Positions 52-32,000 of a stretch of DNA of 32,000 bases are shown here, piece after piece. This DNA comes from Candidatus Saccharimonadota bacterium (GTDB lineage Bacteria > Patescibacteriota > Saccharimonadia > Saccharimonadales > Saccharimonadaceae): the NCBI GenBank assembly GCA_023898645.1, contig CP060232.1:60001-92000 (forward strand), in the 5' to 3' direction. The notes beneath the pieces were generated by a model that saw only the letters and a list, made by a program, of their open reading frames with translations, had not been told where the DNA came from and did no database searches. Position 1 is the first letter of the stretch. Every line of letters starts with the position of its first letter. The position numbers and the translations under genes were made by a program.

Positions 52-1410
52 ATGTATCGCTATTATAACACCTTGAGCCAAGCGACATGGGGTATACTTA
101 ATTGTATGAAGCATAATCTCGTTGAGCGAGTGCTTGTCGGAACACTTTTGGTGGTTGCCGCGGGTATTGTGATACATGCGCCATTAACCGTATGGCTGGG
201 CACTGTATGGCCTCACCAAGTGCAATTTATAAAGGCCTGGAAAGAAGTGTTAATGGGCGTGGCGTTGGTGTTGTTGATTGTAGCGGCGACGCAACGTAAG
301 CAAATTTCGACGCTTCTTCAGGATCGACTGATGCAACTGGCGCTCGTGTATGCCGGGCTGCACTTTGTACTCGTAGCTGTGTATCAGAACGGTTTGACAC
401 AAGCTGGCGCAGGGTTGTTGATTGACTTACGATTTGTACTGTATTTCGTGCTGGTGTATGGTGCTCTTAAACTTTACCCGTGGTATCGCGAGCTGTTTGT
501 CAAAGTATTTGCCGGCGGGGCTGTTGTGGTGCTGTTGTTTTCGGTGTTGCAACAGTTTGTGTTGCCGCGTGACTTTTTGACGCATATTGGCTATAGCAAA
601 GACACGATCTCACCCTACTTATTGGTAGACGAGAATCCAACGTTTGTACGAATTAATAGCACGCTTCGGGGGCCAAACCCACTCGGTGCATATGCGGTAA
701 TTGTATTAAGTTTCCTAGCGGCGATTGCCATACGTGGCAGTCTGAAACGGCGCGATTGGGGCTTTTTGGGCATGGCTGCGCTAGCGGCAGGACTGACGCT
801 GGGAGCGAGTTATTCACGAAGTGCTTTGATAGGCGCCATTGTGGCGCTGTTAGCCGTCGTGGCTGTGTCTGTGAGCAAACGTATACGACAAAAATTTGGT
901 TGGTCGATTTTGGCGGCAACGCTCGTTGTAATCGGCGGGCTTTACGCGCTACGTGGCAGTGAATTTGTGACGAATGTAATATTGCACGACAACCCTACCA
1001 CTGGTGCGTCGGTTGACTCTAACGCGGGGCACCTTAGCTCGGTAGTCGATGGTCTGAAGCTAGTTGCAAGTGAACCGTTTGGCAACGGTGTAGGTAGTAC
1101 TGGTTCGGCGTCGCTTGGCGGTAGCGAGCCACTTATCATTGAAAATCAGTATTTGTTTGTAGCACATGAAGCCGGCTGGATCGGACTTGGTTTGTTTGCG
1201 TGGCTATATGTAGAAATAATGAAGCGATTGTACCAACGACGACGATCCATGTTGGCCCTTGGTGTGTTTGCTAGCGGCTTGGGGCTTGCGGTAGTTGGTT
1301 TGTTTTTGCCGGTATGGGTCGACGATACGGTGAGTATAGTGTGGTGGGGTTTGGCGGCTATTGCAGTGACTGGTCCAATAGGGGGGCATCGTGCGCGAAA
1401 GGGCAACTAA
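52..1410 (+). CDS. Wzy_C / O-antigen-ligase-family polytopic membrane protein
   Basis: 452-aa ORF with many hydrophobic helices. 'GASYSRSALIGAIVALLAV' and the loop 'GNGVGSTGSAS...ENQYLFVAHEAGWIGLGLF' resemble Wzy_C/O-antigen-ligase signature regions. The more likely start is ATG 106 (MKHNLVERVLVG...). Confidence 0.7.
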   Translation: MYRYYNTLSQATWGILNCMKHNLVERVLVGTLLVVAAGIVIHAPLTVWLGTVWPHQVQFIKAWKEVLMGVALVLLIVAATQRKQISTLLQDRLMQLALVYAGLHFVLVAVYQNGLTQAGAGLLIDLRFVLYFVLVYGALKLYPWYRELFVKVFAGGAVVVLLFSVLQQFVLPRDFLTHIGYSKDTISPYLLVDENPTFVRINSTLRGPNPLGAYAVIVLSFLAAIAIRGSLKRRDWGFLGMAALAAGLTLGASYSRSALIGAIVALLAVVAVSVSKRIRQKFGWSILAATLVVIGGLYALRGSEFVTNVILHDNPTTGASVDSNAGHLSSVVDGLKLVASEPFGNGVGSTGSASLGGSEPLIIENQYLFVAHEAGWIGLGLFAWLYVEIMKRLYQRRRSMLALGVFASGLGLAVVGLFLPVWVDDTVSIVWWGLAAIAVTGPIGGHRARKGN

Positions 1411-1735
1411 AAAACAGCAAGAATTGTTGCAGTTTATCGGTGACTTCATAGCCGAGCACAACTATGCACCAAGCTACCGCGAAGTTATGACGTCGTTGGG
1501 GTATAAGTCTGTGTCTACTGTAGCCGTGCACGTAGACGGATTAATTACAAAGGGTTTCTTGGTGAAAAAAGACAAGTCTGCCCGTTCCATACGACTGGCT
1601 TCAGAGGGACCTGAGACGGAAGAAAATACGCATTTAGCGTGGTTGCGTACGGAAATCATGAAGCGTGAAACTGCAGGTGCTGCCGACGAAGAGCTGGGCG
1701 TGCTTCGCCAAGCATTAGAGTTTTTGGACGTCTGA
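1391..1735 (+). CDS. LexA-type winged-helix DNA-binding protein (N-terminal domain only, no S24 peptidase domain)
   Basis: GTG start overlapping the upstream gene by 20 nt. 'TKKQQELLQFIGDFIAEHNYAPSYREVMTSLGYKSVSTVAVHVDGLITKGFL' matches the LexA_DNA_bind pattern. The protein ends after a ~45-aa helical tail, with no Ser/Lys peptidase module. Confidence 0.7.
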   Translation: MRERATKKQQELLQFIGDFIAEHNYAPSYREVMTSLGYKSVSTVAVHVDGLITKGFLVKKDKSARSIRLASEGPETEENTHLAWLRTEIMKRETAGAADEELGVLRQALEFLDV

Positions 1736-1742
1736 TACTATA

Positions 1743-3476
1743 ATGTCCTCTATGAGGCCATTGCGCCTAAAACGGCACGGAGAGTATTTACGTCAACATT
1801 GGCGAAGGTTAATCGTATCTGGTTTTAGTACGATTACATTGCTATTAATTGTTGCGCAGATGGCGTACCCCGAGGACAATTTATCACTTTATGCGATGGT
1901 TGACGGGGTTGATGTGGGTGGATTGTCTAAGAGTGCAGCGAGTAATTTACTCGACAATAAATACAAGCAGCTGCCCATTAATTTATATTTCGGGAAAAAT
2001 GCTGACGCTTATAGGCAGCCGAAGCCGGGTGATATAGGTCTAACAATTAGCAGTCAGCCAGAAGTCGAGGCTAAGATGTATCCGTTTTGGTTGCGGCTTG
2101 TTCCAACTTCGTTATGGTGGGCGCACTTTGTTGCGCAGTCTGCGCCACCACACTATACGCGCGACAACACCAAGGCTGAGTCGTATGTTAAAAAAGAGCT
2201 AGGAAAGTTTTGTAACGTTACGCCACAGAACGCGTCGCTGACGTACAAGGACGATAAATTACGAATAGTACCGGCAGTAGATGGCGGCACATGTAAACTT
2301 ACGGACGTCACGAAGTCGCTTCAGAGTGTAAAACCGCTACTTAAAAAATCAGATGTACGATTTGCTATGCAGCAGAGTCCAGCCAAGATCCATAATGACG
2401 TGGCGAGTGACTTTGCTAAGAAGCTGATGGACAAAACGAAGAGTGTTTCTATGCAAGCTGCAGGTACATCGGTAGCGATTCCGCAGCCGACTTTTTTGTC
2501 GTGGCTTGATTTCAAGGCGCCGGACAGCGGTATAGTAGCGACGATTAGTGCTGAACGAGCAAGTGATTACTTGGCGAAAAACGTGGCGCCAAAAGTGACA
2601 GTCGCGGCCGGTACGACCCATGTGACGACGGTGGACTTTACGGAAACGGGTCGCTCACAAGGCCAGTCGGGCCAGGTGTTTGATAGCCAGGCGACGATTG
2701 ATTTGTTAAATCAATGGCTAGGAGGATCGAGCGTTGAGCTCGTGGCAAAGGTTAAAGTAGCGGCACCTGTTTTGTCGTATTCACGTAGCTATACAGCTAC
2801 AGATACCGGTCTTTCGGCACTGATAACTCATTTTGCTGAGTCGCATAGTGGCGTATACGGTGTGAGCTATGCAGAGCTGAGCGGTCAGCACCGTCATGCG
2901 GGCTACAACGACAGTAGGATATTTGAAACAGCCAGCACGTATAAGCTATTTGTGGCGTACGGTACGCTTAAAAAAATTGAATCTGGCGAGTGGCATTGGT
3001 CTGATCAGATACAGGGCGGGCGCGATCTGACGAAATGCTTTGACGACATGATTGTATTGTCAGACAACGACTGCGCCAAGACGTTGCTCGTTAAAATAGG
3101 CTACGCTCAGCTGACGCATGAACTCCAGGTGATTGGTTTGTCGCATAGCTCATTTTTGAACAGCTACATTCAAACGACACCGGGCGATTTGGTAACGTAT
3201 CTTGGTATGCTTGCGTCGGGCCAGCTATTGAACCAGTCGAGTACTAATACACTTATTTCGGCAATGAAGCGCAATGTTTATCGCCAAGGAATACCGTCTG
3301 GCACTAGCGCTACCGTGGCAGACAAGGTTGGGTTTTTGTACGCGCTTTTGCATGATGCGGCCATTGTATACAGCCCCAAGGGAACATATGCGCTTGTTAT
3401 CATGACCGACGGCAGTAATTGGGGTACGATTGCCGACTTGACTCGTCAAATTGAAAAGTGGCGAGAAGACAACTAG
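1743..3476 (+). CDS. Membrane-anchored serine hydrolase, class-A beta-lactamase fold, with N-terminal PG_binding_4/VanW-like region
   Basis: N-terminal TM helix (LIVSGFSTITLLLIV). 'VDGVDVGGLSKSAASNLL' resembles the putative peptidoglycan-binding domain of YoaR/VanW proteins. The C-terminal ~230 aa carry SxxK (ASTYK, nt 2931-2945), SDN (LSDNDCA) and a KTG-like KVG motif. Confidence 0.75.
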   Translation: MSSMRPLRLKRHGEYLRQHWRRLIVSGFSTITLLLIVAQMAYPEDNLSLYAMVDGVDVGGLSKSAASNLLDNKYKQLPINLYFGKNADAYRQPKPGDIGLTISSQPEVEAKMYPFWLRLVPTSLWWAHFVAQSAPPHYTRDNTKAESYVKKELGKFCNVTPQNASLTYKDDKLRIVPAVDGGTCKLTDVTKSLQSVKPLLKKSDVRFAMQQSPAKIHNDVASDFAKKLMDKTKSVSMQAAGTSVAIPQPTFLSWLDFKAPDSGIVATISAERASDYLAKNVAPKVTVAAGTTHVTTVDFTETGRSQGQSGQVFDSQATIDLLNQWLGGSSVELVAKVKVAAPVLSYSRSYTATDTGLSALITHFAESHSGVYGVSYAELSGQHRHAGYNDSRIFETASTYKLFVAYGTLKKIESGEWHWSDQIQGGRDLTKCFDDMIVLSDNDCAKTLLVKIGYAQLTHELQVIGLSHSSFLNSYIQTTPGDLVTYLGMLASGQLLNQSSTNTLISAMKRNVYRQGIPSGTSATVADKVGFLYALLHDAAIVYSPKGTYALVIMTDGSNWGTIADLTRQIEKWREDN

Positions 3477-3518
3477 GGTTGTCTAAAAGCACAAGCATAA
3501 TCTATACTTGAAACTGAT

Positions 3519-5303
3519 ATGAACTCACTTGAATTGAACTATTGGTTTAAGCAGCACTGGAAGCTGGTGTTAGTAATTATTTTTTCAGTTTTATTACTGG
3601 GAGAGACGATATTTCAGATTGTTTATCCGGGGAGCCGATTAATCCCGGGGACGCGTTTGGATGGAGTTGACATAGGTGGTCTACGAAAAACAGACGCTGC
3701 CAGTAAACTCGACGCTGATTATGCTGATTTGAAACTTGATATTTATTTTGGCAAGAACCAGGCGGCATTCCAGTCGCCAAAAATGAAGGACGTTGGCATA
3801 GGTGTGGACAACGGCGCGCGTGTTGACGCCATGGACTATCCGTTTTACTTACGATTTATACCGGGATCGATATTTTGGGCTCCTGGGCTAGAGAAGCCGG
3901 GCGACATTGCATATACCTATGACAAGAACAAAATAGCCGACTATACGACCAGTAAGGTTGGTTCCGACTGTAGTATTCCACCTCAAAACGCAACTTTGAA
4001 GCTGATAGATAGCCAGTTGCAAGTCGTCGCCTCGATTACCGGAGGTAACTGTGACATCACGTTGTTTCAGCAGGCTTTAGCAAAGATTCAACCGAGTTCG
4101 AATGAGGTAAATAGCGTACGAATTTCTATAAACGAGACACCAGCACCTGTCACGGACGACATGGCGCGCAACCTTGCTGCTACGCTCAATGCGCGGCTAG
4201 CAAACCCTATGCCGATTCAGGTTGATACGTCGACTGACACGATTCCGGGCCGTGTAGTAATGAGTTGGCTCGACTTTACGGCGAACGTGCCAAAACAATC
4301 AATCGATAATAGCGCAAATCAACAGGCAAGTCTGGATTTCAGTGTTAATCAGCAACGCATGGAAGATTACTTAAAGCAGGGAATTGCTTCAAAGTTGGTA
4401 GTTCAGCCTGGGGTCAGTAAAGTTAGTACAAGTGACTTTAAAGAAACTTCCCGAGTAAACGGCGCTAATGGGCGAGAGCTCGATATGCCAAAGGCTGTGC
4501 AGTCGGTCATGGATTATATAAATGGCAAGAATCAAAAAGCGATTGGTGCAACCAGCGTCGTGGGACCAACTACCGTCTACAAACGCAGCTATTCGCCGAC
4601 AAATGAAGGCTTCTCGGCACTGTTGGCACAATATGCACAGGACAATCCTGGAACTTGGGGATTGGCTTTTACGGAATTGAGTGGCGTGCGTCATCCGCGA
4701 AGTGCTTCATTTAACGGCGATGTAAAGATGAAATCTGCAGGTGTCCATGCGCTTTACTTGGCGTATACATACCTTATGCAGAAAGCAGCCGGCATAGCGC
4801 GGCCGGTTGATGTCATAAGTGGTGATACGAGTGCTCAGGAATGTTTCAAACTGATGTTGCAGCAGTTCGACGTGGCTTGTACGCGAGGTTTTTACAATAA
4901 GTTTGGCTATGCCACAATCAACTCACGAGCAAAAGAAATCCCACTGACAAATACTGTTTTTGCTGGTGACGATACGATGACATCTGCTAATGATTTGCAG
5001 AAACTTATGGTTGGTCTCTTTAAGAACACGATTGCTCGTACGCAGGACGGTCAGAGCATACTAAGTACATCGGGCATCAACCGCAAGAGCGATGGTATAC
5101 CTGCCGGCTCGGGCGGTATCAGCGTTGCTCATGTCGTAGGTGAGTCTGACACTGTACACAACGACACGGCAGTTGTGTATGACAGCAACTACGGTAGTTA
5201 TGCACTTACGGTGCTTTCGGATGGATCGTCATGGGACAAGGTTGCTGAACTGGCGCAAAAAATCCACGACCTCAAGATGGTGAAGATTCCACTGCAGAAC
5301 TAA
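3519..5303 (+). CDS. Paralog of the preceding gene with a degenerate beta-lactamase-fold domain (probable pseudoenzyme)
   Basis: Same architecture, colinear with 1743-3476 (YPG..LDGVDIGGLRKTDAASKL, YPFYLRFIPGSIFW). The catalytic motifs are replaced: STYK->GVHA (nt 4740-4751), SDN->GDT, KVG->VVG. Confidence 0.7.
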   Translation: MNSLELNYWFKQHWKLVLVIIFSVLLLGETIFQIVYPGSRLIPGTRLDGVDIGGLRKTDAASKLDADYADLKLDIYFGKNQAAFQSPKMKDVGIGVDNGARVDAMDYPFYLRFIPGSIFWAPGLEKPGDIAYTYDKNKIADYTTSKVGSDCSIPPQNATLKLIDSQLQVVASITGGNCDITLFQQALAKIQPSSNEVNSVRISINETPAPVTDDMARNLAATLNARLANPMPIQVDTSTDTIPGRVVMSWLDFTANVPKQSIDNSANQQASLDFSVNQQRMEDYLKQGIASKLVVQPGVSKVSTSDFKETSRVNGANGRELDMPKAVQSVMDYINGKNQKAIGATSVVGPTTVYKRSYSPTNEGFSALLAQYAQDNPGTWGLAFTELSGVRHPRSASFNGDVKMKSAGVHALYLAYTYLMQKAAGIARPVDVISGDTSAQECFKLMLQQFDVACTRGFYNKFGYATINSRAKEIPLTNTVFAGDDTMTSANDLQKLMVGLFKNTIARTQDGQSILSTSGINRKSDGIPAGSGGISVAHVVGESDTVHNDTAVVYDSNYGSYALTVLSDGSSWDKVAELAQKIHDLKMVKIPLQN

Positions 5304-7185: not shown

Positions 7186-8433
7186 TTATTCTCGGCGTAG
7201 AGCGTCGATGGGGTTGATTCTGTGAGCACGACGTGCCGGTAGTATGGCGACGACTAGTCCAACGAGCCCCATGAAACCTATGAGCGACAAGATAAGCCAC
7301 GGAGGTGTTGCGAACAGCTGGAAGGCTGTCTCGACGCCACGTTGGCGAGCGAAAGTCACTAAAACAGTATTTACAATCTGACCAATGATTACGGCCAAGC
7401 CGATGCCCGTTGCGGCTCCCATGACGGATAGTAGCAACGCCTCGATGATAAACAGCCTACTCATATCGCGGTTTCGCCCACCCATGGCCATCATAAGACC
7501 GATTTCCTTGGTTCGTTCGAGTAGGGATATGGTGAGGGTGTTAAACATACCGAGTACGGCGACGACCATACTGACCGAGCCGAATCCGACGAGCACGAGG
7601 TTAAAGAGCGAGAAGATTTGATTGACTTGGTCGATTGTATCGCTGGGTGATGTGGTTTGAAAGCCCATACTTTCGACTTGTTTTCGTAAATTGGGTATAT
7701 TGTTTGTGTTGTCGACAAGTAGTTGTACTTCTGAATAGGCTGGTACACCGGCAAGATCAAAGTGGAAACTTGGTATGTACACCTCGCTTCCTGCTCCGGT
7801 AGACACGAGTCCTACAACCGTGTAATTATTTTCGAAACTATCTTTTTTAGCACCTGCATCTTGGAGCGGTACGGTGAGATTAATTTTCTTGCCAACGGCG
7901 TCTTTGGGATTTTTGAAGCCGATGGCTTTTGCCGCTGAATCGTTTATGAGGACCGATTTGTTGTCTTGCTGAGTCAGTAATCTACCATCAATAATTTTTA
8001 GCGCGACCATGTCTTGGTAATGCATATCGACACCATAGGCGACGGTATCGACGGCGCTTCCTTTTTGGCTAAGGCTTCCTGGGAAGGAGTACACTAGCCC
8101 TGATTCCTGGACATGGGGGAGTGATGTCATTTTTTTGACAATGTCTTTGTCTAGCTTGACGATGCGGGAGTTTGTAGTAGACACGACGACAGTCTTGATG
8201 GTTTGGTTGCCGATGATTTGTTTTGTCACGAGGTCTTGGATACCTAGGCCAAATGAAAGCAGGAAGAATATTGAACCAATACCGATGATAACACCGGTGA
8301 CGGTGAGTGCGGAGCGTAACTTTTTGTTGATGATGTTGCTCCATGCCATGTGAAACAAGATGCTCCAACGGATACCGGAACGGCCTTTGATGTCGTGGGA
8401 GTTTGATGGTGTTTTGCGACTTTTATTTACCAT
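7186..8433 (-). CDS. ABC transporter permease, MacB/FtsX type (TM1, ~230-aa extracytoplasmic domain, then 3 TM FtsX domain)
   Basis: Start trimmed to ATG 8433 (MVNKSRK...), with GGAGG 8 nt upstream. It overlaps the ATPase stop by 11 nt. The topology and the C-terminal 'INPIDALRRE' are typical of the MacB_PCD + FtsX family. Confidence 0.85.
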   Translation of the reverse strand: MVNKSRKTPSNSHDIKGRSGIRWSILFHMAWSNIINKKLRSALTVTGVIIGIGSIFFLLSFGLGIQDLVTKQIIGNQTIKTVVVSTTNSRIVKLDKDIVKKMTSLPHVQESGLVYSFPGSLSQKGSAVDTVAYGVDMHYQDMVALKIIDGRLLTQQDNKSVLINDSAAKAIGFKNPKDAVGKKINLTVPLQDAGAKKDSFENNYTVVGLVSTGAGSEVYIPSFHFDLAGVPAYSEVQLLVDNTNNIPNLRKQVESMGFQTTSPSDTIDQVNQIFSLFNLVLVGFGSVSMVVAVLGMFNTLTISLLERTKEIGLMMAMGGRNRDMSRLFIIEALLLSVMGAATGIGLAVIIGQIVNTVLVTFARQRGVETAFQLFATPPWLILSLIGFMGLVGLVVAILPARRAHRINPIDALRRE

Positions 8434-9199
8434 GTTTTGCCTCCGAAAGACGATGAATACGGTCGCGCATTTCTCGTAGTAATTTGTCGGCGGTTGCCTG
8501 GATGCTGCTCGAAGGCATTTCAACGACATGACCGTCTTCGATGTGAAGCAGGCTGTCGGCTAATGGTAAATATTCCATATTGTGCGTGACCAAGACAACA
8601 GTCTGGCCGAAATCAGTCTCGCATTGCTCGAGCAAGCTCATGATAAAGTCGCCTGTTTTGCTGTCGAGCGCGCCCGTCGGTTCGTCGGCAATGATAAAGG
8701 AAGGATTGCTAGAAAGGGCGCGAGCAATGGCGATGCGCTGTTGCTCACCACCGGACATCAGCTGCGGGTTCTTTTTGGCGTAATCGTCCATATTGACGCG
8801 TTTGAGTGCCTCGTGGGCTCTTTTAAACGCTTCGGCTCTGGTAAAGCCAAGGAAGTATAGGGGCACTGCGACGTTTTCGAGGGCGGTGAGACTTTTTATC
8901 CAGTAGTTCGACTGGTAGACGAAGCCGATATCGTTGGCGCGAAACTTTGCTAAATCGTCCGGCTTTAGTTCGTACATGTTGTTGCCGGCAAACATGACAC
9001 TTCCCTTTGACGGGTGCTGTAGGCCGGTCAGGACGTTTAGCAGAGTTGATTTACCACTACCAGAGGGTCCGTAGATGATGTTGAAGCTTTTTTCGCTGAG
9101 CGTAAAGCTGACGTCTTTTAACGGTGATATTATATCTTCGCCGATTTTGAATTCGACAGAGATGTTTTTGGCAATGATGAGGTCTTTGTTGGCTGGCAT
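8423..9199 (-). CDS. ABC transporter ATP-binding protein (MacB/LolD/FtsE-like)
   Basis: Walker A GPSGSGKST, signature LSGGEQQRIAIARAL, Walker B IIADEPTGALD, H-loop VTHN. ATG 9199 lies 1 nt after the giant gene's TAA (9201-9203). Confidence 0.9.
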   Translation of the reverse strand: MPANKDLIIAKNISVEFKIGEDIISPLKDVSFTLSEKSFNIIYGPSGSGKSTLLNVLTGLQHPSKGSVMFAGNNMYELKPDDLAKFRANDIGFVYQSNYWIKSLTALENVAVPLYFLGFTRAEAFKRAHEALKRVNMDDYAKKNPQLMSGGEQQRIAIARALSSNPSFIIADEPTGALDSKTGDFIMSLLEQCETDFGQTVVLVTHNMEYLPLADSLLHIEDGHVVEMPSSSIQATADKLLREMRDRIHRLSEAKHGK

Positions 9200-9200
9200 T

Positions 9201-12200
9201 TTATAGTCCAAATATATTCTTTAGTGTGTTAAGTATGATGGTCATGACGCTGTCCGATGCGTGGCCGATGATGGCCGACTGAGCTTGGCCATACGCTATG
9301 TTGCCGGCGGCATCTTTTGAAACAGGCTCAAGGCTGTAGACTTTTGACGTAGGCAAATCTGTCACGATGACGACATGCTCTGTACTTAGTCCGCTGTCTT
9401 CGGCAGTACGACTACTATAATCAGCGGCGTGTGCCCCTTCGGCATAGGCGACTTGGCTAGTGGCGGGTTCGTCGGTGTGCCAACTGACAACGACTTGGCC
9501 ACGGGCTTGTGCGCCGACGCCATGGATTGAAGGCTCGACTGTTACATTGCTAACTATCGGCGGGCGCGTGTCGAGTGCAGTGTGGAACGACTGAGTGTCA
9601 GAGGCGGCGAGGTTACCGTCGGTGTCACGAGATTGTGCTATGAGCGTGTATTCGCTGTTGTCCTGAAGGCCTCGGATGATTATTGCGTGTTGCGTCACCA
9701 TTTTTGTGTCGAGTGAGTCGACTGAACCACCACCAGCTTTCGCGTAACTGATTCCAGATGTCGACGGTACGTTGGTGTCCCAGGTAACTTTTTGCGTACT
9801 CGTGGGTACTCCCTTGACTGGCTGGAAGCGTAGGTTGCTGATACGCGGTCTTGGTGGTGTAGTGAACGAGAAGATGCTGCCGTCGTAACTATTGCCGTCG
9901 GCATCGAACGAGACAAGTTTGTAGAAGTATTTGACGCCGTCATCGAGGCCGTTTAGATCAACATTGTAGGTTGATTTGCTCAGTGAAGTGTTGACGGTTT
10001 GAACCCCGCCGAAGGCGCTCGATTTGCCGAAGTAGACAATGATTTTGCTGGAGTCTTTTGACGTAAATTGGATAGTTGCCGCGGTGAGCGATACTTTTGT
10101 CGTGGTGATTTCTTCGAGTGATGGCGCTGGTGACGTTGTGAATTGGTATTCCTGGCTAACGCCTGTGTTGCCGTCGCCGTCTGTCCACTTGGCTACGAAG
10201 TAGTAGGTGGTGCCTGCGGCCAGGTTATCGAGATCAATCTCGTGAGCGCTGACTTGGTCGGAGTTGCCGATTTCAGACGCACTATAATCGCCACTTTTTG
10301 TGCCGATGGCAATCTTTGAGTCGCTATTGCGGTCGGTGCTCCAGTCGATACGGGCTTTGCGCGTGGTGATGTTGCTCACGACAGGTTCGGCGACAAGGTT
10401 TGCTGGGGATGTGAACTTGCCTGTAGGCAAGGCGCTGACCACTGAGCCCGTCGCGCTACAGTTGTTGGTGCTGTCGCAGGCCTTTACCTGGTAGTAATAC
10501 GTTTGCTGAGTTAGACCGGCATCGATATATGTCGTACTCGTACTACTTCCGGCAAAGGTGAAGTTGGTGTTGTCAGTTGAGCGGTAGATTTTGTAGCTGG
10601 CGATGCCTGCGCCGGTATATGTAGGAGAATCCCAAGTGAGCGCCAGGCGCCAGTTGTTCGTTGACTTGATGGAAACATCGACAATGTCCATGTTAAGCGG
10701 CATGCCCGGCGATGGAGTATTGGCAGTGAAGTTTGCGGAGGCGTAGCTCGAATAGTTGATATTGCCAGACTCGTCTTTGGCGGCAATATAGAAGGTGTTT
10801 TCACCAGGCTGAGTGGCGTAGGCTGCGGGAGAGAGGTTGGAGGCTCCGGCAGTCGTGAAGCTACATGTACTTGATGACGGCAGGGTATTTACCGTGTAGC
10901 AATAAGTGAGATTGTTGACGTCACCGACAAATGTCGTAGGGGGTGACCATGTAAAGGCAAACGAGTTTTCAGTATTGCTTGACGGCGAGACGTTGACGTT
11001 TTGCGGTTCTGACGGTGCGCCACTGGTGTTGACTTTGAGGGCAGCCGACACGAAAGATGTTGTGACATTACCTGCATTGTCCCAAGTGCGGAAGTAGATG
11101 TTGTTGATGCCTTCGGCTAGATTGTCGAAATCTGGCGTTGACTGCATGGTGTATGATCCGTCGTTCGCCAAAAGATCGGTCGAGTCGCCGGTGCCACTAT
11201 GGCTGTCGCCGTACCAGGTGCCGCTGTTGCCGATGCGGTATTGCATACCGGCCAGACCTGAGTTGTTGTCTACGGGTGCATTTGGACCACTTGTTGCCCA
11301 CGTGAGTGTTGCGGCCTTGGTGTTGATGAAGCCGGATGGCGAAGTGATGTAGCCAGGATTTGCTGGTGGCGTGTTGTCGAAGCGGAAGTGGAACTGTTGC
11401 ATTGAAGAAATGACATTTCCGGCATTATCGATAGCTTTGATCGATAGGTAGTACGGTGAATCGCTGGTTGTCAGGGCTGTATTTAGGTAGCCACTTGTTG
11501 CAAGGTCGAGTTCGGTACCGGTTACCATGAATTGGCAGTGGCCGCCTGTATTGGTTGGTGAGGTGCCAAGGAGCCCCTTTGTTGTGGCCGGATCGGCAGT
11601 GTTGTCGGTGCCTACGTAGAGGCAGTAGCCTTTGATGCCGGAGTCGCTGTCGGCGGCGGCTGCCCAGGTGAAGTCGGGCGAGCCACCGTTTGTCCAGTCG
11701 TTGGACGCTAGTGCGGCGCCACCCTTGACGTGGTACGCGCTGATTGTGCCGGCATTTACCGAAGGCTCTGTGAGGTCGGATGTAGCATACGTTGTAACAC
11801 TATTGAGCGTAACTCGCTGGTCGCCATTGCCGGTGAGGACAGCTTGCCACTTGAGTCCGTCGAATGTGACGGGGAAGGTGCTTACATGAGCGTCGACAGT
11901 AGTGGCGTTGTTGGCGTCGGCGGTGCTGTTTGATGCCGACCAGGCGCTGCCGTCCCAATATAGCCATGTGGCACCATTGTCGCTTGATAGCCGGTAGGTG
12001 ATGTTGCCACCATTGGTTGTTTCGCTGGTAGTGAAGTTGTCCCAGTGCCAGACGCCAGATGCGCGTACGGCGTTTGCTAGCGTAATTGTCTCGGAGCCAC
12101 TTGAGTATGGATGTGCGTTGAAGCCAGACCTAGCATCGTTGCTGATGCGTAGCTCGTCGATCTTGCCGTTAAAGGTACCAACTGCTTTGCCATATTCGCG

Positions 12201-15200
12201 ACCGCCGTAACTACTGCCAATCAGAAGTGGTCGGCTACTGTCTGGCAACAGGACATTTGCAGATGTTTGGCTGTCGAGCGCTCCGTCGACGTAGAGCTTC
12301 ATATTGGCGCCGTCGTAGGTTGCAGCAACGTGGTGCCAGTTTGTGTCAAATGATGACTTGCTTGATTCCAGGTAGGCGTTGTTGCCCCATGACCATACCA
12401 AGGCATCGACGTTTGTCGACAGACCCGTACCTGCATAGAGCTTGCCCTTGTAGGGACTAAAGGATTCGATTTCTTCGACACCGTTTGTCCAGCCGCTGTT
12501 GATGCTGTTGCCGCCAATTTTGGACCATGTGCCGTCGCTCAGGCGCCAAACTTCTCCGTCGCCCGTGGAGTTACCAAGCCCTGCGTAAATGTCACCGTTG
12601 TAAACGGCGATAGTTTTAACTCTTTCGTAGGTGCCTGTCGTCCAGCTGCCGTTAATGTCATCGCCACCTACTTCTGTCCACGTTGAACCATCGTACTGCC
12701 ACAGTGTTGCCGATCCGGTCGCGTAGCCCATGCCGGCGTAAAGCTTGTCTCCATATGGCATCAATGATTCGACGTCTTGGTAAGTGGAGCTGTCCCAGCT
12801 GCCGTTAGTACTATCGCCACCAATCTTGGTCCAACCACTGCCGTCCCATTGCCACACTTCACCGTCGCCATTGCTCCGACCTAGACCGGCAATGAGCTTG
12901 CCGTCGTAGACCGCCAATGAGTAAACATTTTCAGCATAAGTGGTCCAGCCACCGTTTAAGCTGTCGCCACCTATTTGCGTCCAGGTTGATCCGTCCCATC
13001 GCCAGACTTCGCCGTCTCTACTGCCAGCACCCAGACCCGCGTAGAGATACCCGTTGTAGCTAGCCATAGAGTCAACTTCGCCGTAATGACTGGACGCCTG
13101 CCAGCTACTGTTGACACCGTTGCCACCAATCTTCGTCCATGAGCTGCCGTCCCATTCCCAGACTTCGCCGTCGGCCGTCGAGCCGCTGGCAGTGTTGCCA
13201 AGGCCAACGATTAAATGGTTGTCGTAGCTTGCCATGCTATATACGTACTCATACGTATTGGCGTCCCAGCTGCCGTTAATTCCTTGCCCGCCAATGAGAT
13301 TCCAGGTCGAGCCGTCATAACGGAAGACAGCAGCTGCTCCTGTAGTGTTGCCCATGCCGGCGTACAAGTAGCCGCCCTGTGCCTGCATGACTTGCACTGC
13401 CGAAAAGCCGTAGAAGCCCCAGCTATTGTTTACGTAATCACCGCCAATTTGTGTCCACGACGAACCGTCCCATGTATAGGCGAGTCCCGCACCGCCGGAA
13501 TCGTACGTGCCAGAGTAGAGTTTTCCGTTGTCATATAGTAGTGTGTTGACGATGTCGCCTTGATTGGTTGCCCAGCTACCATTGTCTCCGTCGCCACCAA
13601 TCTTTGTCCATGACGATCCGCCCCACTTCCAGACCTCACCGTCGCCGTTGCTTGTGCCTAATCCAGCGTAGAGGTTGGTGCCGTCATAGGCGAGAGAAGC
13701 GACTTGTTCGTAGCCACCACCCCAGCCACTATTAACGCCATCGCCACCAATCTTTGTCCACGACGTCCCGCCCCATTTCCACACCTCGGCGTCACCGCTG
13801 CTGTCGCCAAGACCGGCATACAGGTTGCCGCCAAAGTATCGCAAAGAGTCGACAGTTTCATAATTTGTCGTCCAGCCGCTATTGATGCTGTCGCCACCGA
13901 TCTTTGTCCATGAACTGCCATCCCACTCCCACACTTCGGCGTCGTTGGCAGATACGCCAAGTCCGGCATACAGGTGTGTGCCGTCATCAGTGAGTGCGGC
14001 GACTCGTTCAAAATTCGCCGTCCAGCCACTATTGACGCTGTCGCCACCAATCTTTGTCCATGAGCTGCCATCCCACTCCCATACCTCGGCGTCGTTGGCA
14101 GAGTTACCGATTCCGGCATAGAGTTTGCCGCCAAAGTAGTCAAGCGTCCACACCTGTTCGGCGTAATTCGTCCAGCCGCCGTTGACACTGTCGCCACCAA
14201 TTTTGCTCCATGACGAACCGTTCCATTTCCAGACTTCGCCGTCACCGCTAGACAGACCAAGACCGGCATATAGGTTGGTGCCGTCGGTAGTAAGCGAATA
14301 AACACCTTCGTATGTGTTGGCGTCCCAGCTGTTGTGTATGGATGACGGTCCGCCACCAATTTGCGTCCAGCTGCTACCGTCCCATTTCCAGACTTCGGCG
14401 TCACCCGTGTCGTTACCGATACCGTAGTAGTAGTCGGAGCCCATTTTGACGATTGCATTAACGGCACGCTTGCCGTTTTGGTCCCAGCTGCCATTTGTAT
14501 CGTTGCCACCGGCGAGCGACCAACTGTTGGCGTTTTTGTCGGCAAGCTCATAAACGACTTTGCCAGTCTCGTTGTCGTAGTACAGTTGGTAGTCGCCCTT
14601 ATCGACAATCGTTTGGCGCTGTGTGTCGCTACCGGCAGAGAAGTTGCTGCTGAACTGAGTCCAGGCTTCGATTGTGTTTTTTTGTGACAGCGACAAAGAA
14701 GGTGAGTCGGGTACACTGACGGACGACGTTGAACCATTGAGTGACAAGGCGTTGTTGAGGTTTCCTGCACTAAACGTTGCGTTACTGACGGTACCGTTAT
14801 TGCCGTTGGACGAGCTGTCCGTAAGTGTCGAGCCGGTTGATTCGTCCATGTGGTAGAGGGCGGCAGTATTTGCATCGTTGGCATAGTTTTGAGCTTTGAA
14901 CTGAGCGTCGGATCCGGGAAGCTCGATGCCAGAATCAAATGAATAATCGCTACTGTTTGAGAAATTAAATGAATCTACCAAGTCAGAGAGGGCAAAAGCT
15001 TTTTCGTAGGCGCCGAACATTGCAACGCCGACAACCAGCGAATATAAGACCAATATATATGTATGCATGTGCGAGTGGTACTTTTTGTCGTGCCATGCGT
15101 CGTACCACCGCAGTTTGCTCCGTAGGTGCTCGTGAGGACGTTTCGCTATATGGCGGTGTGTTGTTTTTACAACGGCCGCACCGGCCTTCACACCCTTGAC

Positions 15201-15329
15201 GGCAATGCGCTTGCCATGGTGAGACAAGCGTTTTGCGTGTGGTTTGGCACGCAACAAAACAGAGGAAGGGCGTTGCTTCACCCCACTATCTGTGTGTTTT
15301 GTTTTATGTTGTGTCTGTTTCACTCTCAA
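9201..15329 (-). CDS. Giant surface protein: basic N-terminus + TM, LamG split by ~14 tandem ~50-aa Asp-box-like propeller repeats, then multiple FN3 / PAP-N-like FN3 domains
   Basis: The maximal ORF reaches a TTG at 15455, but a hairpin plus T-run (15424-15443) lies inside that extension. The proposed start is TTG 15329 (AGAGGG 5 nt upstream); ATG 15068 is also possible. The TM helix is MHTYILVLYSLVVGVAMFGAY. LamG halves are 'ALYHMDESTGSTLTDSSSNGNNGTV...' and 'WHHVAATYDGANMKLYVDG...FNGKIDELRISN'. FN3-like segments end in '...YYYQVKACD' and '...TTYYFVAKWTDGDGN'. Confidence 0.85.
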   Translation of the reverse strand: MRVKQTQHKTKHTDSGVKQRPSSVLLRAKPHAKRLSHHGKRIAVKGVKAGAAVVKTTHRHIAKRPHEHLRSKLRWYDAWHDKKYHSHMHTYILVLYSLVVGVAMFGAYEKAFALSDLVDSFNFSNSSDYSFDSGIELPGSDAQFKAQNYANDANTAALYHMDESTGSTLTDSSSNGNNGTVSNATFSAGNLNNALSLNGSTSSVSVPDSPSLSLSQKNTIEAWTQFSSNFSAGSDTQRQTIVDKGDYQLYYDNETGKVVYELADKNANSWSLAGGNDTNGSWDQNGKRAVNAIVKMGSDYYYGIGNDTGDAEVWKWDGSSWTQIGGGPSSIHNSWDANTYEGVYSLTTDGTNLYAGLGLSSGDGEVWKWNGSSWSKIGGDSVNGGWTNYAEQVWTLDYFGGKLYAGIGNSANDAEVWEWDGSSWTKIGGDSVNSGWTANFERVAALTDDGTHLYAGLGVSANDAEVWEWDGSSWTKIGGDSINSGWTTNYETVDSLRYFGGNLYAGLGDSSGDAEVWKWGGTSWTKIGGDGVNSGWGGGYEQVASLAYDGTNLYAGLGTSNGDGEVWKWGGSSWTKIGGDGDNGSWATNQGDIVNTLLYDNGKLYSGTYDSGGAGLAYTWDGSSWTQIGGDYVNNSWGFYGFSAVQVMQAQGGYLYAGMGNTTGAAAVFRYDGSTWNLIGGQGINGSWDANTYEYVYSMASYDNHLIVGLGNTASGSTADGEVWEWDGSSWTKIGGNGVNSSWQASSHYGEVDSMASYNGYLYAGLGAGSRDGEVWRWDGSTWTQIGGDSLNGGWTTYAENVYSLAVYDGKLIAGLGRSNGDGEVWQWDGSGWTKIGGDSTNGSWDSSTYQDVESLMPYGDKLYAGMGYATGSATLWQYDGSTWTEVGGDDINGSWTTGTYERVKTIAVYNGDIYAGLGNSTGDGEVWRLSDGTWSKIGGNSINSGWTNGVEEIESFSPYKGKLYAGTGLSTNVDALVWSWGNNAYLESSKSSFDTNWHHVAATYDGANMKLYVDGALDSQTSANVLLPDSSRPLLIGSSYGGREYGKAVGTFNGKIDELRISNDARSGFNAHPYSSGSETITLANAVRASGVWHWDNFTTSETTNGGNITYRLSSDNGATWLYWDGSAWSASNSTADANNATTVDAHVSTFPVTFDGLKWQAVLTGNGDQRVTLNSVTTYATSDLTEPSVNAGTISAYHVKGGAALASNDWTNGGSPDFTWAAAADSDSGIKGYCLYVGTDNTADPATTKGLLGTSPTNTGGHCQFMVTGTELDLATSGYLNTALTTSDSPYYLSIKAIDNAGNVISSMQQFHFRFDNTPPANPGYITSPSGFINTKAATLTWATSGPNAPVDNNSGLAGMQYRIGNSGTWYGDSHSGTGDSTDLLANDGSYTMQSTPDFDNLAEGINNIYFRTWDNAGNVTTSFVSAALKVNTSGAPSEPQNVNVSPSSNTENSFAFTWSPPTTFVGDVNNLTYCYTVNTLPSSSTCSFTTAGASNLSPAAYATQPGENTFYIAAKDESGNINYSSYASANFTANTPSPGMPLNMDIVDVSIKSTNNWRLALTWDSPTYTGAGIASYKIYRSTDNTNFTFAGSSTSTTYIDAGLTQQTYYYQVKACDSTNNCSATGSVVSALPTGKFTSPANLVAEPVVSNITTRKARIDWSTDRNSDSKIAIGTKSGDYSASEIGNSDQVSAHEIDLDNLAAGTTYYFVAKWTDGDGNTGVSQEYQFTTSPAPSLEEITTTKVSLTAATIQFTSKDSSKIIVYFGKSSAFGGVQTVNTSLSKSTYNVDLNGLDDGVKYFYKLVSFDADGNSYDGSIFSFTTPPRPRISNLRFQPVKGVPTSTQKVTWDTNVPSTSGISYAKAGGGSVDSLDTKMVTQHAIIIRGLQDNSEYTLIAQSRDTDGNLAASDTQSFHTALDTRPPIVSNVTVEPSIHGVGAQARGQVVVSWHTDEPATSQVAYAEGAHAADYSSRTAEDSGLSTEHVVIVTDLPTSKVYSLEPVSKDAAGNIAYGQAQSAIIGHASDSVMTIILNTLKNIFGL
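12400..14530 (-). repeat. In-frame tandem array, ~14 units of ~150-156 nt (consensus GDGEVWxWDGSSWTKIGGDSVNSGWTxxYExVxSLxxYxGxLYAGLG)
   Basis: The units can be read directly in the translation. Neighbouring units are near-identical at the DNA level. For example, 13871-13950 and 14021-14100 differ at only a few positions over ~80 nt, at a 150-nt offset. Confidence 0.9.
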
Positions 15330-15423
15330 TGGAACCCTCTTGTAAATCCCACCTCTGTTAAGGTTACTTTTGAGTATACCATACTCCTTGTGCTTTCCAT
15401 ATATTATATATAGCAAATAAAAA

Positions 15424-15443
15424 GGCCACGTACGAAGACGTGG
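15424..15443 (-). terminator. Hairpin + T-run oriented on the minus strand (orphan intrinsic-terminator-like element)
   Basis: On the minus strand: GCCACGT-cttcgt-ACGTGGC followed by CTTTTTATTTG. No convincing minus-strand gene lies upstream of it. Confidence 0.4.
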
Positions 15444-15638
15444 CGCACTGCGCAAAAATTAATAAGCCATACAAATAGATGATACGCACCTTACCCTATA
15501 CCCCGAACGTCTGCTTTTTGCGGATGTTGATTTTACGCAAGTATATGAGTGGCTGTAAATTTCGTCAACCATAACTGAATATACGATTAAAGGTTGTTTT
15601 TTGAATTGCGTCCGTGCATAGTAGTAGCCATAAAGGCT

Positions 15639-20344: not shown

Positions 20345-20479
20345 TCTTTAATACGATGAGACCGTCGAAAATTATCGGTACACATTTGAAAAAGATGCGA
20401 ATTTATGATAGGGTAATAACCATTCTGCATTAGAGGTGAGTGTGGAGTGGAACTGTCCTTTCAAAATTTAGGAGTTCTC

Positions 20480-22219
20480 ATGGGCGAGAATGACAATCGG
20501 TCGCAAGACGACCAAAATGGTGAGCTTGAGGAGCTGCAAGTAAAGTTGCGAAAGCTTCAGGCGCTTGAGGAGAAAGTGGAGTCGCTTCAGGGCGAAAACA
20601 CCAATCTCGTCATACGCAACGAAAAGCTCAGCGACACGTTGCAGACAGCAAGGCAACAAATGCTTCAGCTTCGAGAAGAAATTGATCGTTTAGGCAATCC
20701 GCCGAGCGGTTATGGTGTTCTTTTGAATTGCAATGACGACGACACGGTGGATGTCTATACATCTAGCCGCAGGATGCGCGTGCAGATTTCACCGAATATC
20801 GACATGGACAAGCTTCGTATCGGACAGTTGGTCCGCGTTAATGAGGCCATGACTGTTGTCGAGGCCGTGGGATTCATGCGTACCGGCGAGCTGTGCACGT
20901 TAAAGGAAGTACTTCACAGTGACGTGGAGAACGAACCTCTTCGTGCGCAAATTATCACGCAAACAGACAGCGAACAGATCGTATTGGTGGCTGATTCGAT
21001 TGATTCCTCGTTGTTAAAGGCGGGTGATACGTTGCTTGTCGACACCAAGGCTGGGTACGTGTTCGAACGGATTCCGAAGTCGGATGCGGAGCAGTTGGTG
21101 CTGGAGGAAGTTCCGGACATCGACTACGACGACATTGGTGGATTGTCGCGTCAAATCGAGCAGATTTTTGACGCTGTCGAACTACCGTTCCTCTATAAGG
21201 AGTTGTTCGCGGAGTATAAACTGCAGCCACCGAAGGGTGTGCTGCTGTATGGACCTCCGGGTTGCGGCAAGACGATGATCGCAAAAGCGGTTGCGAACTC
21301 GCTGGCGAAAAAGATGAAAGAACGGACCGGAGATGGTACTGGGAAGGCATACTTCCTGAACATCAAAGGACCGGAGCTTCTCAACAAGTTCGTTGGCGAA
21401 ACCGAGCGGCATATTCGTGAAATTTTCCGTCGGGCCCGTGAAAAGGCTGCGGAAGGTGTGCCGGTCATCGTGTTTTTCGATGAGATGGAGTCTATGTTCC
21501 GCACACGTGGAACGGGCATTTCGTCTGATATGGAAAGCACGGTTGTGCCACAGTTGCTTAGCGAGATCGATGGTGTCGAAGGTTTGGAAAACGTGCTGGT
21601 CATTGGCGCGTCCAATCGTGAAGACATGATTGATCCTGCCGTACTTCGCCCCGGTCGTCTAGATGTGAAAATCAAGGTTGAACGACCTGACGCAGAAGCT
21701 ACGGCGGATATTTTTTCTAAGTATCTCACTGTGGACTTGCCGATTCACGCTGACGATCTTGTCGAATTTGGCGGGGACGCACAAGCGTGTATCAATGGCA
21801 TGATCGAGCGTTCGGTGACGCGTATGTACGACGAGGTTGATGAGAATCGATTCCTTGAAGTGACATATGCAAATGGCGACAAAGAAGTCATGTATTTTAA
21901 AGACTTCAATTCGGGCGCAATGATAAAAAACATTGTCGACCGGGCCAAGAAGTACGCCATTAAGGCCATGATTGAGACCGAACAGCGTGGCATTCGCATC
22001 CAACACCTCATGGAAGCGATAGTCGATGAGTTCGCTGAGAACGAAGATATGCCGAATACGACAAACCCGGATGACTGGGCTCGTATATCGGGCAAGAAGG
22101 GTGAGCGCATAGTGTATATCCGTACGCTCGTCACGGGTAAAAATCAGAATAGTGATGGAGGTGGTCGTACCATCGACACCGCTGAAGATAAGTATGGTGG
22201 ACTGGGACAATATTTGTGA
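20480..22219 (+). CDS. mpa: Proteasome-associated AAA ATPase Mpa/ARC
   Basis: Start trimmed to ATG 20480 (AGGAG 5 nt upstream). N-terminal coiled coil, then 'PPSGYGVLL...DDDTVDV' OB region, Walker A GPPGCGKT, Walker [11 protein letters not shown]. '[25 protein letters not shown]' and '[29 protein letters not shown]' are present. The C-terminus is the proteasome-docking motif GQYL. Confidence 0.9.
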
Positions 22220-22416: not shown

Positions 22417-22932
22417 ATGTTGAGAAATATAAAAGCTCCATTAGTACTGACAGCTCTCTGTCTCTTTTTGCTTTTGAGTGCGGGTACCATACAGTCTGTA
22501 TTTGCTAGTGGGGAAACCGTATCAGCTGACCCTACGGCAACAACCGAACTTAAGACAGCAGCGCCAATTTCGGGCGTAACTATAAACGGGGCTGATAATT
22601 CCACTGTACCAGTAAAACTCCTTGTTACTAATGGTAGCTTGTCGATGACGACGACGACAGGCTTGACGTTTGAGGATGTCAATGGCAACACGATATCCAA
22701 CCCGCAGACCGGTTCAACTCTATATTTTAGTGGCACACGCTCGGACGTAAACGCGGCACTGGCAACTTTGCATTACACTCGAAACTCGGTTGGCACTGAT
22801 ACGCTTGAAATTTCACTCGTAAATCCTGGCGAGGTCTTTTTCTCGGGTACTGGCCACTTGTATGAATATGTTGCCAGTTCGCTTGATGGCAATAGTGCTG
22901 GTAGTTGCAATGCTTGCTGCAGTGCTTCTTGA
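22417..22932 (+). CDS. Secreted protein of unknown function (signal peptide, Thr/Ser-rich)
   Basis: The N-terminus 'MLRNIKAPLVLTALCLFLLLSAGTIQSVFA' is a good signal peptide. No obvious SD. The 3' 71 nt overlap the next ORF in another frame. The ORF ends soon after 'GTGHLYEYV'. Confidence 0.5.
   Translation: MLRNIKAPLVLTALCLFLLLSAGTIQSVFASGETVSADPTATTELKTAAPISGVTINGADNSTVPVKLLVTNGSLSMTTTTGLTFEDVNGNTISNPQTGSTLYFSGTRSDVNAALATLHYTRNSVGTDTLEISLVNPGEVFFSGTGHLYEYVASSLDGNSAGSCNACCSAS

Positions 22933-24723: not shown

Positions 24724-32000
<7,277 letters not shown>

Follow-up and report, generated by a model that had tools for sequence, protein, structure and literature searches.

ABC (ATP-binding cassette) systems of type VII characteristically act on extracytoplasmic partners or on hydrophobic groups in the outer leaflet of the membrane (PMC12646458, PMC7668044, PMC8333309). 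FtsEX acts on EnvC docked to its outer domain (PMC7668044), LolCDE pulls the hydrophobic anchor of an exported protein from the outer leaflet (PMC8333309), and the recently recognized YbbAP-TesA system of Escherichia coli, whose partner is encoded adjacently, has been proposed to remove hydrophobic groups from that leaflet and hand them to TesA (PMC12646458). The last of these was found by co-location and coevolution, and the physical complex is proven (PMC12646458). Here we describe a three-gene cassette from Candidatus Saccharimonadota bacterium, carried on the minus strand of positions 60,001 to 92,000 of CP060232.1 (the window, 32,000 nucleotides [nt] long, in which coordinates are given), that couples the gene of a giant surface protein to those of an ABC ATPase and a MacB-type permease.

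The ultra-small Patescibacteria account for a sizeable fraction of bacterial diversity, are believed to spend their lives attached to other cells, and are generally considered to have a single membrane. Large surface proteins with FN3, DUF2341, or LamG domains have been proposed to serve host contact in this group, and the genome papers that describe them report no conserved tail and no coupled MacB-type pair, the only ABC genes mentioned being FtsEX and generic transporters (PMC11809585, PMC13059738, PMC10633639). The searchable literature, in which subscription journals are thinly covered such that absence is no proof, holds no paper that links Patescibacteria to type VII or MacB ABC systems or that describes the cassette; the statement in a preliminary description of this DNA that the pairing is not a described arrangement is borne out to that extent. 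A type VII ABC system with a dedicated, adjacently encoded outside partner is an established concept, which the giant class of partner and its C-terminal tail are not.

Organization and conservation of the cassette

The genes are ordered giant, ATPase, permease, with no room between them for a promoter or terminator (Table 1), and the 3' end of the permease gene at 7186 lies 9 nt from a convergent gene. The coordinates and junctions reported earlier, including the 1-nt gap between the giant and ATPase genes and the 11-nt overlap of the ATPase and permease genes, hold on re-reading of the sequence, but the span to 15455 does so only in part. The mechanical open reading frame (ORF) of the giant does reach a TTG at that position, but the identical NCBI protein (H6797_00315, 'hypothetical protein') is 2,040 amino acids (aa) long, and we therefore place the start at the GTG at 15323, from which giant residues are numbered throughout.

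The pairing is conserved when approached from the permease. All eight orthologues (51 to 72% identity) lie on contigs in the order giant, ATPase, permease, with giants of 2,013 to 2,134 aa where complete; that of locus L096 is cut at the contig start and has 1,557 aa. The flanks differ in every permease-side locus read (carotenoid genes, ribosomal proteins, P-type ATPase, DHFR, ATP synthase, and others), and no biosynthetic or modification gene is kept beside the module. The permease homologues are proteins of Patescibacteria and Saccharimonadales, and in at least 20 more clusters of permease and giant the longest contigs are identical in size across both, consistent with co-location. No permease orthologue without a giant was found among the relatives examined. 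A scan of genome contigs with the single permease gave four loci, including an orthologue with the module (L006) and a locus of another Saccharibacterium (L007) that carries a permease paralogue of 32% identity with a 330-aa ATPase and no giant, such that the giant-linked pair is one MacB lineage and not MacB pumps in general.

The same holds from the giant. Alignment of its C-terminal 350 residues retrieved 80 metagenomic loci (42 to 69% identity), which together with six earlier loci make a set of 86, and 85 of these are informative in having DNA downstream of the giant. In 85/85 the ATPase gene comes next and is followed by a MacB-type permease wherever the contig is long enough; the median distance from giant to ATPase is +1 nt (73 of the 85 fall within -11 to +5), and that from ATPase to permease is -8 nt. 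The apparent exceptions (L066, L072, and L074 to L076) are pairs of tandem giant paralogues with a single shared ABC pair, L078 is arranged as giant, permease, ATPase, and L005 (1-11230) carries two complete modules in tandem, one DUF2341-headed and one LamG/propeller-headed. The sharing of one ABC pair by two tandem giants and the tandem modules in L005 suggest that a shared feature is recognized.

We consider it very probable that the cassette is a dedicated functional unit. The preliminary description had claimed a dedicated pairing of the giant with a MacB/FtsX-type ABC pair in one tightly coupled operon and had pointed to co-occurrence in relatives as the way to check it; the pairing is kept in all 8 permease orthologues and all 85 giant-side loci, and this synteny, conserved in both directions, supports the claim.

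Table 1. Coordinates of the cassette and its features in the window
Feature	Position	Strand	Details
Giant surface protein gene	9201..15323	-	2,040 aa; GTG start, TAA stop
ABC ATPase gene	8423..9199	-	258 aa; ATG at 9199, TAA at 8425-8423
MacB-type (type VII) permease gene	7186..8433	-	415 aa; ATG at 8433
Giant/ATPase junction, TAA-A-ATG	9199..9203	-	Giant TAA 9203-9201, single base 9200 between; termination-reinitiation geometry
ATPase stop/permease start overlap	8423..8433	-	11 nt; GGAGG Shine-Dalgarno 7 nt 5' of the permease ATG
Best sigma-70-like promoter matches, 5' of the giant gene	15530..15568	-	Two overlapping candidates, 10/12 each; consensus matches only
His-rich motif, n-region	15060..15164	-	Residues 54-88: HRHIAKRPHEHLR..WYDAWH..YHSHMH; predicted cytoplasmic
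Hydrophobic helix and c-region	14991..15059	-	Helix residues 89-106; A-F-A residues 109-111; probable signal peptidase I site before L112
N-terminal part of split LamG/concanavalin-like jelly-roll	14505..14945	-	Residues ~127-273; AlphaFold2 model
Fourteen four-stranded blades, tandem double 7-bladed beta-propeller	12423..14465	-	Residues ~287-967; inserted into LamG; AlphaFold2, Foldseek
C-terminal part of split LamG	12126..12398	-	Residues 976-1066; Laminin_G_3 8.7e-17
Stalk, ~10 Ig/FN3-like (fn3/Pur_ac_phosph_N-like) all-beta domains	9276..12056	-	Residues ~1090-2016
C-terminal tail	9204..9275	-	AIIGHASDSVMTIILNTLKNIFGL-COOH; near-invariant amphipathic helix-forming peptide at the extreme C-terminus
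Extracytoplasmic MacB_PCD domain	7609..8238	-	Permease residues 66-275, 210 residues, between the first and second transmembrane helices

The 5' leader of the giant gene (15310-15530) has a fold z-score of -0.35 and gives no sign of a structured, riboswitch-like element. We note a terminator-like hairpin on the minus strand at 15425-15444 (GCCACGT...ACGTGGC followed by a T-run), between the promoter-like sites at 15568-15530 and the start at 15323; it may be an attenuator; alternatively, the true promoter may sit 3' of it.

The ABC pair and characterized type VII systems

The permease matches MacB_PCD (8e-20) and FtsX (6e-19) in Pfam, both over their gathering scores, and its hydropathy profile has four transmembrane (TM) helices at about residues 42-65, 276-300, 326-352, and 378-400. 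The closest PDB sequences are MacB (5lil, 1.7e-26), B. subtilis YtrF (9o9x), and pneumococcal Spr0695 (5xu1), matches to LolF and FtsX being much weaker, and the earlier MacB/FtsX-type assignment of the permease thus stands. The ATPase matches ABC_tran (1e-32), has LolD (199 bits), the MacB nucleotide-binding domain, and FtsE as its best NCBIfam matches, and retains an intact Walker A (GPSGSGKST), signature (MSGGEQQR), and Walker B (FIIADEPTGALD) with the catalytic Glu. With a four-TM permease bearing an ectodomain between TM1 and TM2, an ATPase of the LolD/MacB/FtsE subfamily, and MacB-fold proteins as nearest structures, the pair is, judged by its sequence, a genuine type VII (MacB-fold) ABC system, and it is orthologous to no characterized one. 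It falls under every curated NCBIfam cut-off tried for LolCDE, MacB, and FtsX, and orthology to a lipoprotein or antimicrobial-peptide exporter that occurs without the giant, which the preliminary description had listed as evidence that would count against it, was not seen.

The nearest systems by sequence and fold are MacAB-TolC, Spr0693-0695, YknXYZ, and YtrEF, which have the same MacB_PCD and FtsX architecture and a LolD/MacB-like ATPase. MacAB-TolC works through an adaptor and an outer-membrane duct, whereas the conserved neighbor in the cassette operon is the giant; no HlyD/membrane fusion protein (MFP; MacA-family) domain is present in any ORF of the window, and none was called in the related operons read. 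A tripartite pump of the MacAB-TolC kind was rejected on the missing adaptor and on the score of the permease against the MacB equivalog (95 bits, cut-off 966).

FtsEX, with its partners EnvC, PcsB, RipC, and CwlO, is like the cassette in having a separate ATPase and a four-TM, FtsX-fold permease with an ectodomain. It has a dedicated outside protein partner, which docks by helices on the outer domain of the permease, and no transported substrate, and we propose the same partnership, likewise without a substrate, for the cassette. However, the cassette permease is a 415-aa MacB_PCD (Porter/Sabre) protein and not a permease of about 300 aa with an FtsX extracytoplasmic domain, and its partner is a 2,040-aa propeller/FN3 protein with a candidate docking tail, whereas those of FtsEX are coiled-coil proteins and peptidoglycan hydrolases; neither a coiled coil nor a hydrolase domain was found in the giant by Pfam, AlphaFold2, or Foldseek. 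An FtsEX division complex was rejected on these grounds (MacB_PCD permease, no coiled-coil or hydrolase partner) and on the 31 bits scored with FtsX models (cut-offs 225 to 255). In YbbAP-TesA, the partner is a small soluble hydrolase and YbbP has a duplicated FtsX fold, whereas the partner in the cassette is giant and nonenzymatic, and a complex with it is a proposal.

LolCDE provides the best mechanistic analogy for handling of the tail, but it acts on a triacyl lipid anchor with a LolC/LolE heteropair and LolA, whereas in the cassette the candidate anchor would be a peptide helix and there is a single permease gene. A LolCDE extractor was rejected on that single permease gene and on the scores for lolCE (57 bits, cut-off 362) and LolC (18 bits, cut-off 473). 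A BceAB-type module, with a 10-TM permease that has a large ectodomain and an adjacent two-component system, was likewise rejected; the permease has 4 TM helices and 415 aa, and no histidine kinase or response regulator is conserved beside the module in the permease-side loci read.

Two further candidates lie outside type VII. The giant RTX adhesins of type I secretion systems (LapA and SiiE) are similar in that a giant repetitive adhesin with a C-terminal signal is encoded beside an ABC transporter, but those systems use a type IV-fold exporter, an MFP, and an outer-membrane protein (OMP) as channel, and their substrate lacks an N-terminal Sec signal, whereas the cassette has a MacB-fold pair, no MFP or OMP, and a Sec-type N-terminus. 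Type I secretion was rejected on the MacB fold, the N-terminal hydrophobic signal with its AxA site, and the lack of RTX repeats in a Pfam search of the giant. An anti-phage defense system was rejected too, since PADLOC gave only generic ABC/AAA similarity for the ATPase and no match for the giant.

The C-terminal tail

Conservation at the two ends of the giant was counted in the best 120 of 485 orthologue clusters. The C-terminus follows the consensus AIIGRASDSVLTIILNTLKxVFG[FL]-COOH and ends precisely at the last residue in 120/120 clusters, with L(-7) and G(-2) in all 120 and F(-3) and T(-13) in 119/120; no other examined segment of the giant matches this conservation. The tail is an amphipathic segment of 18 to 24 residues with a helical hydrophobic moment (muH) of 0.38 (~0.4), and its motif occurs once in the window. 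It is kept in the DUF2341-headed paralogue, recurs in distant clades as NALNLVITNLQEAFGF..., and has a second form, type II (...LTPQxKESVLQIIIKNFEDTFGW...); the family-wide pattern is [DE]S[VI]L.II...L...FG[FLW]. An exhaustive search with the last 120 residues finds the motif, in two flavors, on 77 of the best 150 representatives. The tail is the one feature common to all family members irrespective of head or length (~1,100 to 6,300 aa).

AlphaFold2 (AF2) models of the two halves of the giant, built with 25 orthologues, leave the last 16 residues unpacked, with predicted local distance difference test (pLDDT) scores of 36 to 51 versus >80 for the neighboring domains. Extreme conservation of a segment that is unpacked in the model implies an external binding partner, and the tail is thus predicted to be a peptide that binds something outside the giant. 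The preliminary description had suggested a contact site in the N-terminal juxtamembrane region and did not mention the tail; the evidence points instead to the latter.

LPXTG/sortase, PEP-CTERM/exosortase, PGF-CTERM/archaeosortase, and the C-terminal domain of type IX secretion similarly pair a short C-terminal signal on diverse, large surface proteins with dedicated machinery, and their substrates are laid out like the giant, from N-terminal signal peptide through head and stalk to C-terminal tag. The cassette tail, however, has no LPXTG-like cleavage motif, full TM helix, or basic cluster, and the machinery is an ABC pair and not a transpeptidase. A sortase/exosortase-type signal was therefore rejected as a class, with the tail lacking a TM helix and basic end, and the likeness is one of analogy.

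The N-terminus

The N-terminal helix is more probably a cleavable Sec signal peptide than a TM anchor, because an AxA-type site lies directly before a conserved mature N-terminus (LSDLxDxWxFS after the A-F-A, and LSDLVDSFNF... in the window). In the subclade that has this motif, Ala occupies P-1 in 33/37, and V, T, A, or S occupies P-3 in 35/37; a helix-breaking Pro is often present at the site, and other clades have textbook c-regions, for example, with the site between ...ILL-PMTTVQA and SETLNW. The earlier portrayal of the giant as TM anchored is, on these motifs, probably wrong. The His-rich motif that precedes the helix is limited to the subclade of the window (44/120 orthologue clusters), and the wider family without it keeps the ABC pair; the motif therefore cannot be the general link to that pair. 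Over the family, N-terminal regions vary strongly while the ABC pair stays.

Head and stalk

Pfam identifies Laminin_G_3, fn3, and Pur_ac_phosph_N in the giant. The Laminin_G_3 match covers profile positions 58-146 only and is located after the propeller blades, whose motif is DGEVWxWDGSxWTKIGGD. The AF2 model of the N-terminal half (residues 50-1110; pLDDT 85, predicted template modeling score 0.81) has a long helix at 51-112 followed by the jelly-roll, and that of the C-terminal half (residues 1080-2040; pLDDT 84) is a string of about 10 Ig/FN3-like domains. The best Foldseek matches of the N-terminal half are tandem double seven-bladed propellers (Elp2 and the GH74 oligoxyloglucan cellobiohydrolase OXG-RCBH), whereas the C-terminal half matches generic FN3/Ig arrays only, without an enzyme fold; neither half has an enzyme or functional homologue by Foldseek, and the giant has no match among PDB sequences. 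The mature giant is thus modeled as a head, composed of a split LamG domain and a 14-blade double propeller, carried by a stalk of about 10 FN3/Ig domains, with the tail last. From typical domain lengths, the stalk is estimated at roughly 35 to 40 nm.

A LamG and double-propeller fold is often linked to glycan binding, and the likely cellular role of the giant is attachment to the host cell or to glycans. The best 120 of the 485 giant clusters (E<1e-20) have lengths of 1,781 to 2,090 aa, most of them ~1,925 to 2,090, and are 57 to 70% identical over the full length, a constraint that does not fit a fast-evolving variable adhesin.

In the part of the giant gene that encodes the propeller repeats, there is a 426-aa ORF in another frame (13658-14938, minus strand), which is a by-product of the repetitive, GC-richer sequence and not a gene. 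Positions 10000 to 14000 of the window have a GC content of 0.52 to 0.56 and a local reversal of GC skew.

Range and variation of the family

Named matches are from Saccharimonadales, Woesebacteria, and CPR3. The 1,421-aa giant of L085 finds relatives in the 'Patescibacteria group', Candidatus Woesebacteria, and candidate division CPR3, in which the heads vary (DUF2341, LamG, Kelch, and others) and the FN3/Pur_ac_phosph_N array is unchanged; this stalk is the part conserved over the whole wider family. Across the lineages with the cassette, permease identity falls to 27 to 45%. In the exhaustive search, the C-terminal module is terminal in proteins from <300 aa (short and presumably partial) to 6,321 aa; its 4,026 matches (E<=1e-3) are inflated by generic FN3 similarity and are not taken as the family size.

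Five giants with the type II tail were looked up, of which four are informative. Downstream of the giants of 4,418 and 6,179 aa lie an ATPase and a MacB_PCD/FtsX permease, and downstream of one of 3,517 aa lies an ATPase, on a contig that ends before any permease. The family can be defined by five features, namely, a Sec-type N-terminus, a variable head, an FN3/Pur_ac_phosph_N-like array, the C-terminal tail, and an ATPase and permease downstream. All are present in the window and recur in the 85/85 informative loci, and the downstream ATPase is found for 3/4 informative type II giants.

The ABC pair varies as well. In distant clades (L072, L074 to L089, and L091 to L093), the permease ectodomain is ~170 to 250 aa larger, as in the 686-aa permease of L085, and the type II modules have an elongated ATPase of 348 to 426 aa; the flavor of the tail shifts in parallel.

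Southlakia epibionticum, the oral model strain and the one genetically tractable Saccharibacterium with transposon sequencing data, appears to be without a giant. No protein with PF16656, PF13385, or PF10102 is found in Table S2 of the Southlakia study, whose main text has no mention of ABC systems (PMC10633639). The MacB_PCD pair of this strain (SEML1_0053/54) is preceded by a tRNA and not by a giant.

How the ABC pair may act on the giant

We lean, by a modest degree, toward a direct action of the type VII ABC pair on the giant through the C-terminal tail, for anchoring, deployment, or actuation. The giant would be exported by Sec and its signal peptide cut at the conserved AxA site, which would leave the canonical adhesin order of distal head, FN3 stalk, and proximal tail; once the signal peptide is removed, the tail is the only candidate for a membrane-proximal end. 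As the last segment out of the translocon, the tail would stay at the outer leaflet, where the permease could engage it by its extracytoplasmic domain or by a lateral TM groove, an engagement proposed because characterized type VII ABC systems act on docked partners or outer-leaflet hydrophobic groups. Binding and hydrolysis of ATP would then hold, extract, or move the tail, and the giant could be anchored noncovalently, deployed into the wall or surface layer, actuated, or released; the nearest parallels are FtsEX with EnvC/PcsB, LolCDE with the acyl chains of lipoproteins, and YbbAP with TesA.

Several observations weigh against this proposal. Mutual information in 64 nonidentical giant-ATPase-permease triplets shows no tail-permease enrichment, although clade signal dominates and the analysis is underpowered. 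The permease ectodomain is less conserved (0.47 to 0.64) than the TM helices (0.70 to 0.88), as in ordinary MacB exporters. A 3,518-aa giant (P0377, L094 6001-16557), which combines an RCC1-propeller head with a type II tail, lacks an ABC pair beside it, its downstream genes being Sua5, TatD, and ATP synthase; it is the sole informative exception found. At the N-terminus, the h-region is long (18 residues), the n-region, ~90 aa in the clade of the window, is unusual, and cleavage is read from sequence motifs, such that a stable N-terminal anchor is the less probable alternative. Finally, the apparent lack of a giant in Southlakia means that published transposon sequencing data say nothing on the module.

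A broader and more tentative extension of the tail-based proposal is that tail and MacB-type pair together could constitute an unrecognized sorting or anchoring system of Patescibacteria, by analogy an ABC-powered counterpart of LPXTG/sortase. The ABC pair would recognize the tails of Sec-exported giant adhesins (1,100 to >6,000 aa) and would spend ATP on a noncovalent, releasable anchor or on extraction and hand-over to the wall.

In a version built on the preliminary description, the N-terminal TM helix keeps the giant anchored, and it is this helix and the juxtamembrane region that pack on the permease, as the helix of MacA does with MacB, such that movement is passed to the propeller head. 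The conserved His-rich motif just before the helix suggests a membrane or cytoplasmic function in the subclade of the window, AF2 gives one continuous helix over residues 51-112, and membrane-fusion adaptors of MacB systems are anchored at the N-terminus. But the His-rich motif is absent from the wider family that keeps the ABC pair (it is present in 44/120 clusters only), the AxA-type site, often with a helix-breaking Pro, lies directly before the conserved mature N-terminus, and with an N-terminal anchor the head would lie at the membrane and the stalk would point away from it, opposite to the arrangement in known adhesins. We regard this version as unlikely.

It is also unlikely that the coupling is indirect, with the ABC pair handling a small hydrophobic molecule, glycolipid, wall precursor, or peptide and the proteins being co-expressed without contact; the exported molecule would be a ligand, modification, or matrix of the giant, or something from which the cell needs protection. 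Many MacB-family pumps do handle small molecules, peptides, or lipids (MacAB, DevCA, HrtBA, and YbbAP; PMC12646458, PMC8277102), and both the moderate conservation of the permease ectodomain and the absence of a tail-permease covariation signal in the 64 triplets fit such a role. It leaves unexplained, however, why a near-invariant, unpacked tail goes with the ABC pair in giants that otherwise differ widely and why a 1-nt stop-start coupling is kept over deep divergence, and there is no conserved biosynthetic or modification gene nearby.

We find it improbable to a greater degree that the ABC pair serves as a quality-control extractor, clearing the membrane or translocon of the long signal peptide or a stalled precursor of the giant after export. 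Type VII ABC systems do pull hydrophobic segments from the outer leaflet (LolCDE and YbbAP; PMC8333309, PMC12646458), export of a chain of 2,040 to 6,179 aa is demanding, and the ABC genes are translated after the giant gene, with amounts tied to it; yet the ABC pair is kept across N-terminal regions that vary greatly, and the conserved element sits at the opposite end of the giant. Small genomes pack unrelated genes tightly and stop/start overlaps are common in them, but the notion that the genes became neighbors by accident, through the operon history of a streamlined genome, is effectively refuted by synteny, with 85/85 and 8/8 adjacencies in unrelated neighborhoods, permease divergence to the identities given above, and persistence of the pairing in rearranged (L078), duplicated (L005), and type II modules.

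Conservation of the cassette turns a single-genome observation into a lineage-wide rule, that tail-marked giant surface proteins come with their own type VII ABC motor. If the ABC pair acts on the tail, the giant would be a fifth kind of partner for type VII ABC systems, after EnvC/PcsB, LolA, MacA, and TesA, and the tail might add a new class of C-terminal sorting signal. If the more tentative sorting-system proposal is true, these epibionts would have their attachment to a host, and their release from it, under energy-dependent control. A search for the tail motif offers a way to identify the surface-protein repertoire in uncultured candidate phyla radiation genomes, and the tail and ATPase are well-defined targets for mutagenesis or complex prediction.

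Other features of the window

A second giant ORF, on the plus strand at 24745-32000, encodes >2,418 aa and runs past the end of the window, with a signal-like N-terminal helix, NHL repeats (Pfam 3.8e-56), and Big_1. It was considered and rejected as a paralogue of the first giant, as it has NHL repeats and no BLASTP similarity. Directly 5' of it are genes for a WxLIP_PGBD (WxL-interacting, peptidoglycan-binding) protein (22862-23872, plus strand) and a TPR protein (24013-24723, plus strand), and these, together with the second giant, possibly form a further cluster of surface proteins; in L091, too, a TPR protein comes after the ABC pair.

The window also codes for a proteasome-type AAA ATPase (20447-22219, plus strand; Prot_ATP_ID_OB_N/C and AAA) that is ARC/Mpa-like and is also present in L001 (20762-21236). 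Actinobacteria, the usual hosts of Saccharibacteria, are the group from which such ATPases are best known, and the window shows neither a proteasome nor a Pup-ligase gene. Positions 1391-5303 (plus strand) encode a protein with a LexA DNA-binding domain and then two tandem paralogous proteins of ~580 aa with C-terminal Beta-lactamase2 domains, the second with an additional weak PG_binding_4 match; the pair are possibly peptidoglycan-related enzymes.

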